From the NCBI RefSeq assembly GCF_003991155.1, contig NZ_CP031293.1: a stretch of DNA of 64,000 nt, one strand, 5' to 3'. Below, one piece after another: positions 1-10,131 of this stretch. The translations under genes and the position numbers were made by a program. Source of the stretch: Escherichia coli. GTDB taxonomy: Bacteria; Pseudomonadota; Gammaproteobacteria; Enterobacterales; Enterobacteriaceae. Under the pieces are notes generated by a model. That model saw nothing but the letters and a program-made list of their open reading frames with translations, was not told where the DNA came from and made no database searches. Each line of letters begins with the position of its first letter. The stretch's first letter is position 1.

Positions 1-57
1 CTTTCACTGCTTTTACCCTCTACCATTAGGCTAATTGCGACGAGAAAGGGACGACCT

Positions 58-186
58 ATGAATACTAACGTTTTTCGACTGCTCCTGCTGGGAAGCCTGT
101 TCAGCCTTAGCGCCTGTGTGCAGCAAAGCGAAGTGCGGCAGATGAAACACAGCGTCAGCACACTGAACCAGGAGATGACGCAACTC
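58..186 (+). pseudogene. yajI: yajI 5' fragment (lipoprotein signal peptide and N-terminus), truncated by IS insertion
   Basis: ORF 58..246 starts with a lipoprotein-type signal (LLLGSLFSLSAC); the YajI-like reading stops matching after ...EMTQL at 186 and runs into IS sequence. The rest of the protein resumes in frame at about 1940. Confidence 0.75.
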
Positions 187-197
187 ATTGACATCCT

Positions 198-217
198 CCA
201 CGCCCTGAAGGACGTGG
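198..217. repeat. IS subterminal imperfect palindrome (right-end hairpin, tnpB side)
   Basis: ccacgccctgaaggacgtgg, about 11 nt inside the inferred end; same loop motif as the hairpin at 1899..1918. Confidence 0.6.
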
Positions 218-230
218 ATCCCTGCTACGT

Positions 231-1439
231 TCAGGCTGTCGCCTGAATCATTTCGGTGGGTTCCTGCTTCAACGGGCGGCCTGACTGCACCATCCCTCCA
301 CAGGCAAGAACGGCGTGCCCCGCCGCTAAAATGTTACGAGCGCCATTTACATCGGCGTTCGCTGTATATCCACATACCTGGCATCTGAATTGACTTTGTG
401 ACAGGCGATTTTCTTTCGCTGTATGACCACAGCACGTGCAACGCTGGCTTGTGTACGCTGGCGGAACAGCAAGCACCTGACCGCCACGCCAGAGCTGCTT
501 GTACTCAAGCTGGCGGCGCATTTCATACCAGCCCTGATCCAGTACCGAACGGTTTAAACCTGATTTTGCCCGGACATTGCGTCCCGGCTGGCTGACCGTA
601 CCCGCTGCTGACTTTGACATGTTGCTGACCTTCAAATCCTCAATGACTATCATTGCGTGGTTTTTGCTGACGGTCGTTGTGACTTTGTGAAGGTAGTCCC
701 TGCGGATATTTGCGATACGGGAATGCAGTCGCTGTATTTTGCGTTTCTGCTTCTGCCAGTTATTGCTGAATTCGACCTTGCGGCTTAACTGTCGCTGAAG
801 TCTCGCCAGCGTCTTCTGGTTTTTCTGAAAACTGTTTACAGGCTCAAAGACTGTGCCATCTGACAGCGTGGCGAGTTTAGCCACGCCAGCATCCAGCCCG
901 ACCATTGATGCTGAAGGGTGAACCGGAGTGGATACTTCACTTTCTGTCTGAATACTGATGTACCACTTACCGCAGGACTGGCTGACAGTGACATTTTTCA
1001 CAACACCCGTGACCTGACGGCTGTTCCGGTAGCGCATCCAGCCCAGTTTCGGCAGAAAAATACGGCTGTTTTCCTGATCGAGCTTAACGCCCTGCGGGTA
1101 GCGGAATGCATCATTCTGTCCCCGCTTTTTGAATCGGGGAAAAGCAGCCCGCTTCTGGAAGAAGTTTTTGTAAGCCCGCTCAAGGTCTTTCAGTGACTGT
1201 TGCAATGGCTGTGAGGGCGAATCTTTAAGCCATTGCGTTCCAGTGGCGTTTTTCCACTCAACCAGCCAGGAAGCCATTTTCCCGTAAGGGATGTATTTAT
1301 TACCGGCCTCATGATTCTCATTCTGAAGCGCCAGAGCACGATTGAAAACGAAACGACATGCGCCTGCGAAGCGCCTCATTTCATGCTCCTGTTGACCACC
1401 GGGTCTTAACTGGAATTTAAATGCCTGTAGTCGTTTCAC
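231..1439 (-). CDS. tnpB: TnpB (OrfB), IS605-family RuvC-like nuclease with C-terminal zinc finger; apparently intact, 402 aa
   Basis: Track ORF 231..1439. N-terminus [13 protein letters not shown] is typical of TnpB/OrfB; C-terminal CTCCGH...[18 protein letters not shown] is the zinc-finger/RuvC-III region. GTG start read at 1439. Confidence 0.85.
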
Positions 1440-1461
1440 AGGTCAAATTATATTTTGGTCT

Positions 1462-1973
1462 GTGAAAAAAGAAACCGATATCCGGCGTGGAAGGCATTGT
1501 GTTTTCCTGATGCATGTTCACCTGGTCTTTGTCCCAAATACCGACGCCAGATTTTTGACCATGACGCGACAGAAAAACTACGCACTTACTTTTCAAATGT
1601 ATGTGCTGATTTTGAAGCTGAACGGGTTGAAATGGATGGCGAACCAGATCACGTCCATTTGTTAATTAACTATCCTCCCAAACTGGCGATATCCAGTCTG
1701 GTAAACAGCCTCAAAGGTGTATCGGGTAGGTGACTGCGACGAGATCGACCAGATATTGCAGTCAGGTATTACTACAAAGGCGTTTTGTGGAGTCCTGGCT
1801 ATTTTGCCAGTAGCTGCGGAGGTGCGCCAATATCCGTCATCCGCCAATACATTGAACAACAGCAAACACCTGGTCAGGTGGAAAACCGCGCCTTATATCC
1901 CCGCCCTGAAGGACGGGGTTTTACGGCGCACCGGATAAAGAAACCGTCAAAATCACTCAGCAAAACAGGCTGA
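1462..1973 (+). pseudogene. tnpA: tnpA (IS200-like Y1 HuH transposase), disrupted by at least two frameshifts
   Basis: Transposase motifs are spread over three frames: HVHLVFVP (1462..1665), PKYRRQ...DHVHLLINYPPKLAISSLVNSLKG (1455..1733), WSPGYFASSCGGAPISVIRQYIEQQ (1785..1973). The first shift sits at the A-run in gtcccaaatacc. Confidence 0.8.
1899..1918. repeat. IS subterminal imperfect palindrome (left-end hairpin, tnpA side)
   Basis: ccccgccctgaaggacgggg, about 20 nt inside the inferred end. Confidence 0.6.
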
Positions 1974-2344
1974 ATGCAAAATCCAGCAGTGGGGTTTACC
2001 TTCTGCCTGGAGCGAAAACACCGGCAAGACTGGAAAGCCAGATCGGTACTTTACGTATGTCGCTAGTGAATATTACGCATGATACAGATGGCACCACCCT
2101 GACGCTACGTATTCAGGGCGAGTCGAATGACCCCTTGCCCGCATTCAGCGGAACTGTTGAATATGGGCAAATTCAGGGAACAATAGACAACTTTCAGGAA
2201 ATCAATTTGCAGAATCAATTGATTAATGCCCCTGCCAGCGTCCTCGTCCCCAGCGATGTTGATATTCCGTTACAGTTAAAGGGGATTTCTGTAGAACAGT
2301 TAGACTTTGTACGTATCCACGACATTCAACCTGTTATGCAGTAA
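1940..2344 (+). pseudogene. yajI: yajI 3' fragment (remainder of lipoprotein YajI)
   Basis: In-frame continuation ETVKITQQNRLNAKSSSGVYLLPGAK... leading into track ORF 2057..2344 (MSLVNITHDTDGTTLTLRIQGESNDPLPAFSG...). Confidence 0.75.
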
Positions 2345-2469
2345 ACGTATAGCGGGGCGATTTTGTGCGTCCCGCAACATCTTTTCCCGTCATTTTGTTA
2401 CTCCGCTTACATCACCTGGATTGATAGTAAAAGTTTGCAACAAGGGTGAAAGTCAGTACAATCCCCGCC

Positions 2470-2560
2470 CGAATGTGTGTAAACGTGAACGCAATCGATT
2501 ACGTAAATGATAGAACTGTGAAACGAAACATATTTTTGTGAGCAATGATTTTTATAATAG
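2470..2560 (+). promoter_or_regulatory. tsx promoter region with CRP/CytR-type TGTGA half-sites
   Basis: TGTGA motifs at about 2517 and 2537 and an AT-rich -10-like stretch upstream of the tsx start; tsx is a known CRP/CytR/DeoR-regulated gene. Confidence 0.45.
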
Positions 2561-2642
2561 GCTCCTCTGTATACGAAATATTTAGAAACGCAATTTGCGC
2601 CTTTTTCACTCCCGCAAGGGATTTTCAAACAGTGGCATACAT

Positions 2643-3527
2643 ATGAAAAAAACATTACTGGCAGCCGGTGCGGTACTGGCGCTCTCTTCGTCTTTTACTG
2701 TCAACGCAGCTGAAAACGACAAACCGCAGTATCTTTCCGACTGGTGGCACCAGAGCGTTAACGTTGTCGGAAGCTATCACACCCGTTTCGGACCGCAGAT
2801 CCGCAACGATACCTACCTTGAGTACGAAGCATTCGCTAAAAAAGACTGGTTCGACTTCTATGGTTATGCGGATGCGCCGGTATTCTTCGGCGGTAACTCC
2901 GATGCAAAAGGTATCTGGAACCACGGTTCTCCGCTGTTTATGGAAATCGAACCGCGTTTCTCCATCGACAAACTGACCAATACTGACCTTAGCTTCGGTC
3001 CGTTCAAAGAGTGGTACTTCGCGAACAACTACATTTACGACATGGGTCGTAATAAAGATGGTCGCCAGAGCACCTGGTACATGGGTCTGGGTACCGACAT
3101 CGATACTGGTCTGCCGATGAGCCTGTCCATGAACGTCTATGCGAAATACCAGTGGCAGAACTATGGCGCAGCGAACGAAAACGAGTGGGACGGTTACCGT
3201 TTCAAAATTAAATACTTTGTGCCGATTACCGATCTGTGGGGCGGTCAGCTGAGCTACATCGGCTTCACCAACTTCGACTGGGGTTCCGATTTAGGGGATG
3301 ACAGCGGTAACGCAATCAACGGTATTAAGACCCGTACTAATAACTCTATCGCTTCCAGCCATATTCTGGCTCTGAACTACGATCATTGGCACTACTCTGT
3401 CGTAGCTCGTTACTGGCACGACGGTGGTCAGTGGAACGACGATGCAGAACTGAACTTCGGCAACGGCAACTTCAACGTTCGCTCTACCGGCTGGGGTGGT
3501 TACCTGGTAGTAGGTTACAACTTCTAA
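2643..3527 (+). CDS. tsx: Nucleoside-specific outer-membrane channel Tsx
   Basis: Track ORF 2595..3527 contains [38 protein letters not shown]...; ATG at 2643 gives the 294-aa precursor ending in GYNF. Confidence 0.95.
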
Positions 3528-3535
3528 TTGTGAGA

Positions 3536-3564
3536 ATGCCGGATTTCATATCCGGCATTTTTTA
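3536..3564 (+). terminator. Intrinsic terminator of tsx (hairpin plus T-run)
   Basis: atgccggatttcatatccggcat followed by tttttt, directly after the tsx stop. Confidence 0.75.
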
Positions 3565-3912
3565 TCACTTCTTCTTGTTCATCATCGCTTTCAGGTCAGC
3601 GAATGGGTTGTACTTCGCTTCACCGACATCTTTCTGCGCATCTTCCCCTGCGATAACGGTCGTACCATACTGATCCGCTTCGGTATATTTCGAATGCTCA
3701 TGATCGTGGCAATAGAGACAAAGCAATTCCCAGTTACTGCCATCTTCCGGGTTATTGGTATGGTCGTGATCAATGTGGTGAACGGTAAGTTCACGCAGGT
3801 TGGAATAAACAAACTCACGGGAACAGCGACCGCAGACCCACGGATAGATTTTTAATGCTTTTTCGCGATAGCCGCTTTCTAACCGCGCATAGTTTTTTGG
3901 GATGATAGCCAT
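3565..3912 (-). CDS. yajD: HNH-nuclease-family protein YajD
   Basis: 115-aa ORF MAIIPKNYARLESGYREKALKIYPWVCGRCSREF... with the HNH His/Cys pattern (HHIDHDH...CLYCHDHEH). Confidence 0.9.
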   Translation of the reverse strand: MAIIPKNYARLESGYREKALKIYPWVCGRCSREFVYSNLRELTVHHIDHDHTNNPEDGSNWELLCLYCHDHEHSKYTEADQYGTTVIAGEDAQKDVGEAKYNPFADLKAMMNKKK

Positions 3913-3999
3913 GAAAAGTTACCTGGATGAAATGTAGGGTTACGCGCAGTTTCCCAAGATGCGGGGATTTTCGCAATCCTGAGTCAAGAAATTCTCACA

Positions 4000-4281
4000 T
4001 TACCAGTGACGGCGAGGTTCCATCAGCTGATGAAGAATGCGCGCAATGAGAATGTCATCGACTCTTATAACGTAATAAACAGTGTGAAACCTAAATGCGA
4101 TCTTCTTTACCTCTGGAATCGCATCATAGTCTTGCCCTATCTCGGGCATTTGAGAGAGTGTATCCAGAAAAATGCCGAGAGAGTCGGTGTAGCGATCCGC
4201 CTGCTCCTCACCAAACTTTCCCAGCGTGTAGTCATAGATCCCTCTGAAATCTTCAACAGCTTTTCCGCTAAGCTTATACAC
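4000..4281 (-). CDS. parE: ParE/RelE-superfamily type II toxin (ParE-like)
   Basis: Track ORF 4000..4314; the likely start is the GTG at 4281 (VYKLSGKAVEDF...), overlapping the antitoxin stop by 8 nt. ParE-like pattern ...YKLS..A..D...IYDY......A.R.......L..MPE.G......P......R...Y.YY.IRVDD.I.IARILH. Confidence 0.75.
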   Translation of the reverse strand: MYKLSGKAVEDFRGIYDYTLGKFGEEQADRYTDSLGIFLDTLSQMPEIGQDYDAIPEVKKIAFRFHTVYYVIRVDDILIARILHQLMEPRRHW

Positions 4282-4516
4282 GATGTTTTTGCTTCCTTTC
4301 TGCTGCGATATCACGAAGCGTCATCGAACTTTCACCGCTCTCAAGACCTTCAATAACAGCATTTCTGACAGCTTCATCCCTGGATTCTTGTTGTTCCAAT
4401 AGACGAAGCGCTGAACGCATTACTTCACTGGCCGAGCCATAACGACCAGACTGGACCATCCGTGTAATAAAACTATCTAATTGTTCGCCAACGCTTACTG
4501 AGGTAATTTTGCGCAT
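4274..4516 (-). CDS. parD: ParD-family (RHH/CopG-like) type II antitoxin
   Basis: 80 aa, MRKITSVSVGEQLDSFITRMVQSGRYGSASEVMRSALRLLEQQE...; ATG at 4516 with a GGAGA ribosome-binding site 7 nt upstream; sits immediately upstream of, and overlapping, the toxin ORF. Confidence 0.8.
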   Translation of the reverse strand: MRKITSVSVGEQLDSFITRMVQSGRYGSASEVMRSALRLLEQQESRDEAVRNAVIEGLESGESSMTLRDIAAERKQKHRV

Positions 4517-4529
4517 AAGCGATCTCCAT

Positions 4530-4546
4530 GTATTAACTATTAATAC
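4530..4546. promoter_or_regulatory. Perfect palindrome upstream of parD (candidate autoregulatory operator)
   Basis: gtattaa-cta-ttaatac, about 15 bp upstream of the parD start codon. Confidence 0.4.
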
Positions 4547-4666
4547 AAAGTATATGTCAGAACTCTTTCTACAACCAAACCGTATTCAGTTGCATGTGAA
4601 ACAGGCAAAAAAAACCGCAGCGCAAATACGCCACGGTTTTTTTAACAGAACGGATTTAAAACACCC

Positions 4667-5638
4667 TTAAGGCAGAATTGACGGCTGATCCGCCCCTTCT
4701 TTTTCCACTTTCTGCTGCAGCATGTGTTCGCGCTTCATACCCAGTTTCAGAGCCAGCGCCGATGCTACGTAGATGGAAGATGCAGTACCGATGGAAACAC
4801 CGATAAGCATGGTCAGCGAGAAGCCTTCCAGTACCGGACCACCGAAGAGGTACAGCATCAGGATAACCATCAAGGTAGTACCGGATGTGATCAAGGTACG
4901 GTGCAGCGTCTGGGTCAAGGACACGTTAAAGATTTCGTAAGGCGTACCGCGACGGATCTTGCGGAAGTTTTCACGAATACGGTCCGATACCACGATACTG
5001 TCGTTAAGCGAGTAACCGATAACTGACATCAACGATGCCACAATGGTCAGGTCAATCTCGATATGGAATAACGACAAAATACCCAGCGTAATGATAACGT
5101 CGTGCGCCAGCGCAATAACAACCCCTGCCGCCAGTCGCCACTCAAAGCGGAAACCTACGTACACGAGGATAGACAGCAGCGCCGCCATCAACGCCATCGC
5201 ACCGGTTTGCGCAAGGTCTGCCCCCACGCTCGGCCCGACGAACTCAATACGCTTCACTGCCGCATTCTGATTGGTGGATTCGTTAATCACCTTCAAGACC
5301 TGGCTGCCCAGCACCTGACCGCCGGTTTCGCCTTCAGCAGGCGGCATACGGACCATGATGTCGTGGCTGCTACCAAAGTTTTGCAGCATCGGCTCTTCAA
5401 AACCGGCTTTTTGCAATGCATCACGCATTACGTCAATTTCAGCCGGTTTTTCGAGCGTAATTTCAATAACCGTACCACCGGTGAAATCCAGCCCCCAGTT
5501 AAAGCCGCGCACGCCCATAATAACGATAGCGGCGATTAACAGCAGACCAGAGATGCCGAAAGCCCAGTAGTCCCAGCGCATAAAGTCATAGACTTTACGG
5601 CCGTGGTTTAGTTGTTCAACAGTATATTCCTGTGCCAC
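4667..5638 (-). CDS. secF: Protein translocase subunit SecF
   Basis: Track ORF 4667..5683; the recognised SecF begins at [29 protein letters not shown] (GTG at 5638). Confidence 0.93.
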
Positions 5639-5648
5639 ATCGCACTCC

Positions 5649-7496
5649 TCAGATTGACAGCTTCTTGACGCGCTTGCCGCCATATAGCAGGTTTACGATG
5701 GCACGCGTACCGACAATCGCGGTAAACATCGACGTCGCCACACCGATACCGGTAGTAATCGCGAACCCTTTAATTGCCCCGGTACCCACTGCGTACAGGA
5801 TGGTGACTTTAATCAGCGTGGTGATGTTCGCATCGAAGATGGAACTGAATGCGCCACGATAACCTTCATCAATTGCCTGTTGAACAGTACGTCCGTTGCT
5901 CAACTCTTCTTTAATACGTTCGTTGATCAGTACGTTCGCGTCGACCGCTACCGCAAGGGTTAAGACGATACCCGCGATACCTGGCATACTCAGCGTTGCG
6001 CCTGGCAACAGCGACATAATACCGACGATCAAGATCAAGTTGGCAATCAGAGCACTGGTCGCAATCAGACCAAACTTCTTATAGAAGATGATCATGAACA
6101 GAATAGAAACCAGCAGACCGGCAAGGCAAGCCTCCAGCCCCTGCTCAATGTTCTGCATACCCAGGGTCGGGCCAATTGTACGTTCTTCAACAATCTGAAT
6201 CGGCGCGATCAACGCACCGGCACGCAGCAGCAGTGACAGCTGACGGGCTTCGTTCGGGTTGTTGATGCCGGTGATACGGAAGCTGTTACCCAGACGAGAC
6301 TGGATGTTAGCGATGTTAATCACCTCTTCCTGTTTCACCAGAACCGCACGACCGTTAGCATCTTTCTTGCCGCTGTCTTTGTACTCCACAAACAGGGTCG
6401 CCATCGGTTTGCCGATGTTGTCCTTGGTGAAGTTAGACATAATGTTGCCACCTGCGCTGTCGAGCGAGATGTTAACCTGCGGCTGGTTGTATTCGTCCTG
6501 GCTGGAAGTGGAGTCGGTGATATGGTCACCGGTCAGAATTACGCGTTTGTACAGCACAACCGGCTGACCTTCGCGGGTCTGTTTCACTTCAGAGTCGCCC
6601 GGTACGCGGCCGGATGCCGCAGCGGCCTGATCAACGTTGGTGTTTACCAGACGGAATTCCAGCGTTGCCGTCGCACCCAGAATCTCTTTCGCACGCGCGG
6701 TGTCCTGAATACCTGGCAGTTCAACAACGATACGGTCAGCACCCTGACGCTGAACCACCGGCTCCGCCACGCCAAGTTGGTTTACACGGTTACGCAGGAT
6801 ATTAATGTTCTGCTGCACCGCATATTCACGCGCTTCACTCAGACGAGCATCGCTCATTACCGCACGCAGCTGGTTGCTGCCCTGGCTGCTAATCACCAGG
6901 TCCGGATGGCGCTTGCTCAGATACGCAATGGCTTCATCACGAGCTTTAGCATCGCGGAAAGTGATGCTCAGGCCGTAGTTGTTTTCTTTACGAACGGTGG
7001 TATACGGGATGCCCTTTTCACGCAGGTCGCTGCGCAGGCTATCGATGTTTTGTTCCTGGAGTTTGCCAAGCGCGGTGTCCATATCCACTTCCATCAGGAA
7101 GTGAACGCCGCCACGCAGGTCAAGGCCGAGCTTCATCGGCTCAGCATGAATAGCTGCCAGCCAGCGCGGCGTTGCCGGGGCAAGGTTAAGCGCCACGACG
7201 TATTTGTCACCCATAACGCCCATTAATGCTTCACGAGCGCGCAGCTGGGTGTCAGTGGAGTCGAAGCGCGCAAGAATAGCGCCCTCTTCCAGTGCCACAG
7301 ACTTAGCAGTTATTTTTTCTTCTTGTAACGTTTTCTGGACCTGGATCAGCGTTTGCTCACTGGCGGCGACTCCGCGCGCACCAGTGATCTGAACAGCCGG
7401 ATCCTCACCAAACAGGTTGGGAAGCGCATACAGCAGACCGATGACAATCACCACGATCAGCATGACGTACTTCCACAAAGGATAACGGTTTAACAC
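5649..7496 (-). CDS. secD: Protein translocase subunit SecD
   Basis: 615 aa, [36 protein letters not shown]...; stop 10 bp upstream of the secF start. Confidence 0.95.
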
Positions 7497-7523
7497 GGCA
7501 ATTCCCTTAGGGAAAAATTTTAA

Positions 7524-7856
7524 TTACAGCGCCTTCATGGTGCCTTTCGGCAGGACGGCAGCTACGAAGTCACGTTTAATAACTACTTCAGTGGTGTCAT
7601 TCAGCGCGATAGCAATGTAGCCGTTTTCCGCTACTTTGGTTACGCGACCAACCAGGCCACCGTTCGTCAGAACTTCATCACCTTTGGCAATGGAGTCCAT
7701 CAGCTTTTTGTGTTCTTTGGTGCGCTTCTGCTGTGGACGCAGGATCATGAAATAGAAAATCAGACCGAATACCACCAGCATCAAAATCAAAGACATCGGG
7801 CTACCTTGCGCCGGTGCACCCGTTGCCGCTACCGCATCAGAAATAAAAAAGCTCAT
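7524..7856 (-). CDS. yajC: Sec translocon accessory subunit YajC
   Basis: Track ORF 7524..7886; the recognised YajC starts at MSFFISDAVAATGAPAQGSPMSLILMLVVFGLIFYFMILRPQQKR (110 aa). Confidence 0.9.
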   Translation of the reverse strand: MSFFISDAVAATGAPAQGSPMSLILMLVVFGLIFYFMILRPQQKRTKEHKKLMDSIAKGDEVLTNGGLVGRVTKVAENGYIAIALNDTTEVVIKRDFVAAVLPKGTMKAL

Positions 7857-7878
7857 TAAATTTCCCTCATTATTAATA

Positions 7879-9021
<1,143 letters not shown>

Positions 9022-9060
9022 TCAGAAAAACAGTCCAACGTTTAAACCAGCGCCGCGGAA

Positions 9061-10131
9061 TTACTCCCCGACGCGCTCATTAATTGCCTGCGGATTGTAC
9101 GTGATAAACATCGCATCACCGTAACTAAAAAAGCGATATTTCTCTTCTACCGCCGCTTTATAGGCGTTCATAGTGTGTTGATAGCCGGCAAATGCCGAAA
9201 CCAGCATAATCAGCGTCGATTCAGGAAGGTGGAAGTTCGTCACCAGCGCATCGACCACTTTGTACTGGAAGCCGGGATAGATAAAGATTTGGGTATCGTC
9301 AAAGAACGGTTCGATGAGATCGTTTTTCGCCGCCTGGGCCGCGCTTTCCAGCGAACGTACCGAGGTGGTGCCAACCGCAATCACCCGGTTACCGCGCGCT
9401 TTCGCCGCCAGTACCGCGTCTACCACATCCTGCGGTACTTCAGCGTATTCCGAGTGCATGATGTGATCTTCAATGGTGTCGACGCGCACCGGCTGGAAGG
9501 TGCCCGCACCAACGTGCAGGGTGACAAACGCCATCTCCACGCCTTTGGCGCGTAATTTTTCCAGCAAAGGTTCGTCAAAATGCAGACCAGCGGTCGGGGC
9601 TGCAACCGCGCCCGGTTTTTCGCTATAAACGGTTTGATAAAGTTCGCGGTCAGCGTCTTCGTCCGGACGGTCGATATACGGCGGCAGCGGCATATGGCCG
9701 ATGCTGTTGAGGATATCCAGTACCGAACGATCATCATTAAATTCGACTTCAAACAGTGCGCCGTGGCGCGCGGTCATTGTTGCGTTAATACTTTCGTCAT
9801 CGCCCAGCAGCAGTTCTGCGCCAGGTTTTGGCGCTTTCGAGGCGCGAATATGCGCAAGAATGCGTTTGTCGTCGAGCATCCGCTCAACCAGCACTTCAAT
9901 CTTGCCGCCGCTGGCTTTACGCCCAAACAGACGCGCCGGGATCACGCGGGTATTATTAAAAACCAGAAGATCGCCGGGGTTGAGCTTATCGAGTAAATCG
10001 GTGAAAGTACCGTGCGTCAGCGCGCCCGTCGGCCCGTCCAGCGACAGTAAACGACAGCTACTGCGTTCAGGCATGGGATAGTGGGCAATCAGGGATTCGG
10101 GCAATTCAAAGGAGAAATCGGTAACGCGCAT
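9061..10131 (-). CDS. queA: S-adenosylmethionine:tRNA ribosyltransferase-isomerase
   Basis: 356 aa, [33 protein letters not shown]... Confidence 0.95.

Follow-up and report, generated by a model that had tools for sequence, protein, structure and literature searches.

TnpB proteins are reportedly RNA-directed nucleases that cleave DNA in a motif-dependent manner, a biology said to have been established by Karvelis and by Altae-Tran in 2021, and the ends of IS200/IS605 elements act as folded single-stranded DNA, as in IS608. Further TnpB biology on which the mechanism proposed below draws is described in the preprint of Meers et al. The omega RNA of ISDra2 from Deinococcus radiodurans has a scaffold of 116 nt, made up of stems 1-4 together with a pseudoknot in which positions -5..-3 pair with -105..-103 in the loop of stem 1 (PMC10097598). 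RAGATH-18 RNAs form the scaffold core of the guide RNAs (reRNA) of IS607 TnpB proteins (PMC11061315), and sotRNAs are sense transcripts over tnpB 3' ends whose right-end-like hairpin is also present in HgcC; the same 2015 study observed E. coli K-12 RNA-seq reads over the tnpB 3' end (PMC4615843). An 'IS609' TnpB ortholog has been purified and assayed (NAR 2026, PMC12781874), and Tables S1-S3 of that publication list a 206-nt 'IS609 omega RNA scaffold' and the TAM TTAT, both predicted rather than mapped. The kind of feature discussed here, the scaffold of the lineage and the motif TTAT are already in the literature as predictions, and a literature search on InsQ plus TnpB found nothing relevant. 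In the window (the whole 64-kb stretch of E. coli DNA analysed), a catalogued insertion sequence interrupts yajI, in an ordinary copy that has the guide RNA to be expected for its TnpB. It is very probable that the right end of this copy carries the omega RNA of the IS609 TnpB nuclease, with a guide derived from yajI; the sequence-only reading had placed a guide RNA at the tnpB 3' end and right end, and comparative structure, suppression of synonymous change, homology to ISDra2 and the publication on the IS609 ortholog all support that placement.

The IS609 copy in yajI and its genes

Positions 1..2400 of the window correspond to the yajI-tsx region of E. coli, in which yajI is interrupted (parts at 58..187 and 1935..2344) by an IS609 copy of the IS200/IS605 family at 188..1934 (1,747 bp), with no target duplication. 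These limits are set by the fact that independent insertions diverge there and that empty alleles are the exact join of 187 to 1935. Six independent E. coli insertions, from compared loci at yedK, ydcO, a TetR gene and the yeaQ/yeaR region, share the window sequence from TTGACATCCTCC (188) to ...GCGCACCGG (1934) and diverge directly outside 188 and 1934, and the ends agree across these six and about 20 copies of other genera. Uninterrupted yajI in CFSAN018748, CB7453 and 16-9255 reads CAACTCA/ATAAAGAAAC, that is, window position 187 joined to 1935 (CAACTCA/ATAAAG), and the minus, tnpB-sense strand of the empty site reads ...GTTTCTTTAT/TGAGTTGCGTCATCTC.... A right end at about 187 had been proposed from the letters, which correctly made it adjoin yajI, but the last element base is 188 and the flank starts at 187. 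Elsewhere in the window, an ORF of 104 aa (4000..4314, minus strand), in which Pfam identifies a ParE toxin domain (E = 7e-14), adjoins yajD, and K-12 is without such a ParE-domain gene between yajD and secF. The genes and ends of the element are as follows.

231..1439, minus strand: tnpB, an intact InsQ/TnpB gene of 402 aa (Pfam), with its TGA stop at 233..231
1447..1878, plus strand: tnpA pseudogene, Y1 transposase (Pfam Y1_Tnp), by comparison with the intact tnpA of O157:H7 IS609 (locus L069)
1890..1934, minus strand: left end with subterminal hairpin (1918..1899), last element base 1934, the ends agreeing across copies
188..191, minus strand: terminal TCAA of the right end, the cleavage-site tetranucleotide, invariant in nearly all copies and situated at the motif position of the donor junction

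The copy displays what characterizes IS200/IS605 elements, namely Y1 TnpA and TnpB genes (divergently oriented in IS609), subterminal hairpins at both ends, neither inverted repeats nor target duplication, and insertion 3' of a short conserved motif. It is 97.9% identical in nucleotides, over 1..1747, to the insQ/IS609 copy of K-12, whose insQ we take to be the only tnpB of that strain; the insert is labelled IS609 in several genomes, and the yajI insertion is carried by about 340 of 5,426 complete E. coli genomes. The tnpB stop at 231 given by the sequence-only reading is confirmed by the TGA, and the product, labelled 'RNA-guided endonuclease InsQ/TnpB family protein' in RefSeq, contains the Pfam domains HTH_OrfB_IS605, OrfB_IS605 and Cas12f1-like TNB and matches the ISDra2 TnpB structures 8bf8, 8exa and 8h1j at E = 1e-53. 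As judged from sequence, TnpB would be catalytically competent, with a RuvC D-E-D triad (D183, E267 and D363, aligned to the ISDra2 active-site positions) and zinc-finger CxxC pairs at C334/C337 and C353/C356.

Relative to the O157:H7 gene, tnpA is without a start codon (ATT for ATG at 1449), bears a frameshift from a 1-bp deletion near 1534 and acquires a premature TGA by a T to G change at 1732; RefSeq likewise marks it frameshifted with an internal stop. With tnpA dead, the element is unable to excise or move by itself, and in most E. coli IS609 copies examined tnpA is annotated as a pseudogene while tnpB stays intact. It is therefore conceivable that the scaffold is a relic, kept by recent descent and no longer made or used, in an immobile element whose tnpB is a decaying passenger. 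The state of tnpA here and in most other E. coli copies would fit this, as would the 98% identity among E. coli IS609 copies and the outcome of a simple scan for sigma-70-like promoters, which revealed no such site on the element's minus strand, a result that is also compatible with processing from the tnpB mRNA and proves nothing. However, tnpB is full length with its catalytic residues intact, its pN/pS, computed from seven E. coli copies, is about 0.33, each of the 42 pairs in the structure described below is canonical in the window copy, and transcripts of the tnpB 3' end have been reported for the K-12 copy (PMC4615843), such that a relic is unlikely and an omega RNA still maintained with its nuclease is the preferred reading.

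Extent and fold of the predicted scaffold

Judging from sequence comparison, the last ~100 nt of tnpB together with 43 nt of non-coding right end constitute a conserved structured RNA on the minus strand, composed of the following parts.

188..334, minus strand: core of the predicted omega RNA scaffold, 147 nt, or 139 nt when counted from stem 1 (326), ending ...GGAGGAUGUCAA; from alignment A2 and pair counts
310..326, minus strand: stem 1, GCGGCG-GGGCA-CGCCGU; from alignment A2
261..304, minus strand: stem 2, CCUGU at 304..300 with GCAGG at 267..263, enclosing stem 3; from alignment A2 and the RAGATH-18 match
296..274, minus strand: stem 3, three pairs with compensatory changes
221..256, minus strand: P_d, an additional stem-loop that separates stem 2 from the right-end hairpin and contains the tnpB stop codon (233..231)
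197..218, minus strand: subterminal hairpin of the right end, UCCACGUCCUUCAGGGCGUGGA, after which comes GAGGAUGUCAA; compensatory changes in four pairs

The fold is based on 29 Enterobacterales copies (alignment A2); 57 related loci had been collected, one genome per species, and in about 30 of them, from many genera, homology to the window minus strand stops exactly at ...GGAGGATGTCAA (188). In a curated structure of 49 pairs, 96.5% of cells across the 29 copies hold standard pairs, against 39-50% in controls in which partners were slid by 1-3 columns. Eleven pairs are changed on both sides, amounting to 49 such cells, and the covariation score is 0.227 versus at most 0.086. For four of the five measures, none of 500 shuffles attained the value of the real alignment; for the remaining one, further pair types, 187 of them did. 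In alignment columns, pair 116:122 of stem 1 occurs as G-C (14 sequences) or A-U (13) and joins two third codon positions at which the change is synonymous (Ala GCG/GCA, His CAC/CAU); pair 190:214 of P_d is A-U in 15 and G-C in 13, with changes in the TnpB tail (EMI to EAS) accompanying changes in the non-coding 3' strand; and pair 199:206, also in P_d, is G-U, A-U or G-C. These compensatory splits divide the sequences differently and thus do not reflect one inherited event. The structure belongs to the tnpB-sense strand, as the antisense pairs less well (79% of cells versus 96.5% for the sense, with 257 G·U cells).

Synonymous-codon identity over 17 full-length orthologs reveals the same region from the coding side. 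The last 34 codons of tnpB (335..234) reach 0.81 against 0.54 in the gene body, the block ranking first of 335 with the next highest at 0.73, and in 10-codon bins the value rises from 0.61 (359..330) to 0.73 (329..300) and 0.88-0.89 (299..240). As identity drops to background upstream of about 330, the constrained RNA begins near 326-334, not at 420. The sequence-only reading had envisaged a structured RNA within 171..420 and a scaffold of about 230 nt from roughly 420 to 187; a conserved structure indeed lies there and the location of the scaffold was right, but the core is ~140-147 nt and extends only to about 326-334. The longer form, up to 420, was rejected, synonymous conservation being at background upstream of ~330 and a hairpin at 357..341 being almost without compensatory change. 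A second synonymous peak occurs at 630..689 (tnpB codons 251-270; bins of 0.86 and 0.73 over a background of ~0.54), surrounding the region of the catalytic E267, and the sole promoter-like match in 1..1600 (625..653, plus strand, antisense to tnpB) lies within it.

Conservation at a transposon end could also reflect DNA-level transposition signals only, the right end serving as a single-stranded substrate for TnpA with no functional RNA. The right-end hairpin, which resembles the left-end hairpin (UCCACGUCCUUCAGGGCGUGGA and CCCCGTCCTTCAGGGCGGGG, respectively) and covaries, is what this explanation would predict, as its conservation is expected for TnpA anyway; it would be at once stem 4 of the omega RNA and the DNA hairpin recognized by TnpA. 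However, compensatory changes and suppressed synonymous variation reach 60-140 nt into tnpB (stems 1 and 3 and P_d), beyond the hairpin, an omega RNA whose structure was solved by experiment has a matching fold, and tnpB remnants elsewhere keep the whole scaffold and not merely the hairpin. A purely DNA-level origin is accordingly very unlikely, and a guide RNA scaffold that shares its 3' hairpin with the transposition machinery is the reading retained here.

The pairing of the 3' terminus is more equivocal. The loop of stem 1 (GGCA, 319..316) could form a pseudoknot with UGUC (193..190), in which 99.1% of cells are paired and the variable loop base is always a purine (G·U or A-U), and the 42-pair version of the structure that includes it gives the same covariation picture as the curated one. 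A nested helix between ACAUUU (334..329) and GGAUGU (196..191) is an equally good fit, and no compensatory changes were found in alignment A2 for either. By homology to ISDra2, we favour the pseudoknot. The single 147-nt sequence folds at -63.5 kcal/mol (z = -3.24), its minimum-energy fold keeping P_d but differing from the comparative model in the 5' half. Columns 112-118 had been paired with 134-140 in the RNAalifold consensus; in view of the nearly perfect covariation of pair 116:122 and a motif order like that of ISDra2, a local stem 1 and a RAGATH-like stem 2 were adopted in place of that pairing.

Variants of the scaffold occur beside and beyond this lineage. Within the window copy, a near-repeat (GAAGCAGGAACCCAC, 270..256, and GUAGCAGGGAUCCAC, 228..214, minus strand) lies on either side of P_d, which is absent from ISDra2 and may have arisen by internal duplication. 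In Photorhabdus and Klebsiella pneumoniae (L029-L034, L043, L044 and L059), a TnpB subfamily of 61-63% protein identity is 85-88% identical in DNA to window 449..259 (stems 1-3) and ends in the same GGAGGATGTCAA; its P_d module differs and its right-end hairpin is longer, which looks like modular exchange of the 3' part of the scaffold. Finally, tnpB remnants in E. whittamii (L058), Photorhabdus tasmaniensis (L062), a Gammaproteobacteria MAG (L064) and two further loci (L054, L038) keep only the last 34-100 codons, yet retain a complete scaffold and right end with pairing intact; these are possibly stand-alone omega RNA loci or simply decay products.

Predicted guide, target-adjacent motif and possible role

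Directly beyond the scaffold, the minus strand crosses the right end into yajI as ...GGAGGAUGUCAA/UGAGUUGCGUCAUCUCCUGG, the flank beginning at 187, the same point at which the flanks of all other copies diverge. Two features follow from these boundaries.

172..187, minus strand: predicted guide of 16 nt, 5'-UGAGUUGCGUCAUCUC-3', the yajI sequence directly 3' of the right end
1935..1938, minus strand: target- or transposon-adjacent motif 5'-TTAT-3' (plus-strand ATAA), in flanking yajI DNA, all copies being flanked by TTAT/TTAC

The guide length is taken by analogy from ISDra2 (PMC10097598), and a 20-nt version would extend to 168. The yajI flank had been named as the source of the guide by the sequence-only reading, which is upheld; its first base is U187 (UGAGUUGCG...), one base earlier than the 'gagttgcg' given there. 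In the empty yajI allele the minus strand reads TTAT/TGAGTTGCGTC, and as the sequence after the motif (TTAT/TGAGTTGCGTCATCTC) is that of the flank after the right end, the guide equals the DNA beside the motif. TTAT or TTAC stands directly 5' of the left end in all E. coli copies and in about 20 copies elsewhere (Serratia, Yersinia, Morganella, Xenorhabdus, Citrobacter, Pantoea and other genera), and the motif is thus given as TTAY; with the next base included, that of the window copy is TTTAT (1939..1935). The motif GTTTC (1940..1944) previously suggested lies five bases too far out and gives way to TTAT, since TTAT/TTAC flanks every copy and the empty allele places the insertion directly 3' of TTAT. 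For this IS609 copy, the corrected and testable pair is TTAT plus UGAGUUGCGUCAUCUC. The sole match to motif plus guide in the 64-kb window is the element's own junction, with TCAA replacing TTAT, and neither a second target nor a second scaffold copy was found in the window. The insertion target is polymorphic in E. coli, window-like alleles having TTTAT and K-12 yajI (L001) having TTGAT at the place of window 1935..1939; the four motif bases of the K-12 allele are TGAT, and an empty allele of this type might escape the guide RNA if the motif is strict.

A model may be constructed in which a minus-strand transcript would span the last ~100 nt of tnpB and the 43-nt right end and run into yajI. 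By analogy with ISDra2, the omega RNA would be cut from the tnpB mRNA. Its fold would consist of stem 1, whose loop would contact the 3'-terminal UGUC in a pseudoknot, a stem 2/3 core like that of RAGATH-18, the lineage-specific stem-loop and, last, the right-end hairpin. Once it carries this RNA, TnpB would cut DNA in which TTAT is followed by UGAGUUGCGUCAUCUC, that is, an uninterrupted yajI allele or the donor joint after excision, and such cleavage would favour retention of the element. The occupied site would be spared because TCAA sits in place of TTAT. For this strain, transcription, RNA processing, TnpB loading and DNA cleavage are proposed by analogy with described TnpB systems. Beyond the right end by 22 nt, a terminator-like hairpin (CAGTGTGCTGACGCTG then TGTTTCATCT; 150..165, minus strand, antisense to yajI) could set the 3' end of read-through, terminator-like sites being modestly above chance (6 found versus 2.0 expected).

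As tnpA is dead, a role in retention or homing would matter only with TnpA in trans or with an incoming empty allele, and the canonical excision-coupled role may be idle here. An alternate scenario is a fixed, allele-specific nuclease, in which TnpB and its omega RNA would cut incoming uninterrupted yajI alleles with TTAT, but not those of the K-12 type with TGAT, during conjugation or transduction. This idea is prompted by the observation that tnpB and the scaffold have stayed intact under purifying selection although tnpA is inactivated, both in this copy and in most others from E. coli; we regard it as improbable, and if true it would bias inheritance towards the insertion or form a small recombination barrier, independent of transposition.

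Comparison with known guide RNAs

The sequence-only reading had also proposed a covariance-model search for omega RNA scaffolds, and at a permissive E-value Rfam returned three weak TnpB-related matches, all on the expected minus strand, with no family at its gathering score: RAGATH-18 (RF03064; 304..261, 28.1 bits, E = 0.016, gathering score 44.9), HgcC (RF00062; 298..175, 23.8 bits, gathering score 50) and sot0042 (RF02656; 358..197, 17 bits, gathering score 88). By sequence, the scaffold appears to resemble the RAGATH-18 motif while falling short of family membership by score. The IS609 core CCUGUGGAG...CGUUGAAGCAGGAA can be aligned from one end to the other with the consensus of RAGATH-18, but its internal stem-loop is 17 nt rather than about 44, and IS609 has a Y1 (IS200/IS605) TnpA, whereas RAGATH-18 has been reported only with IS607 (serine TnpA) TnpBs (PMC11061315). 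The sotRNA and HgcC matches agree in strand and place and in a right-end-like hairpin near the 3' end; however, RF02656 and RF00062 are archaeal families and IS609 scores far under their gathering scores. As given in its tables, the scaffold of PMC12781874 is identical to a homolog from a Pantoea plasmid (L025) in alignment A2 and ends in GGAGGAUGUCAA like the window; its TnpB is ~84% identical to that of the window, and the window scaffold differs from it at several covarying positions. What is added here is a covariation-supported secondary structure for the IS609-lineage omega RNA, with P_d over the tnpB stop and a RAGATH-18-like core in an element with a Y1 transposase, which may be of use in annotation and in engineering of IS609 TnpB and leaves the understanding of TnpB systems unchanged.

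The fullest correspondence is with ISDra2, for which the published scaffold was numbered and the structures 8EXA, 8BF8 and 8H1J were used. In both, the RNA lies over the tnpB 3' end and right end, the guide is taken from the flank directly after ...UCAA, and the left end is preceded on its 5' side by the motif; residues 3-376 are covered by the alignment of the two TnpB proteins. Stems 1-4 map onto IS609 by sequence motif and order. In ISDra2 the loop of stem 1 pairs with 3'-terminal nucleotides, as it may in IS609. In both elements, the stem 2/3 core has the form YYNRUGGAGG...GAAGNNRGAAYC (CUCAUGGAGG...GAAGUGAGAAUC in ISDra2, CCUGUGGAGGG...GAAGCAGGAACC in IS609), and the right-end hairpin, whose loop is U-rich, makes up stem 4. 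However, the motif is TTGAT in ISDra2 and TTAT/TTAC in IS609, stem 3 of IS609 is shorter, and tnpA and tnpB are divergently oriented in IS609. The 3' tail is GAGGUUCAA in ISDra2 and GGAGGAUGUCAA (hairpin then GAGGAUGUCAA) in IS609, and ISDra2 is without P_d, the extra stem-loop of ~36 nt (256..221) that IS609 places between stems 2 and 4.
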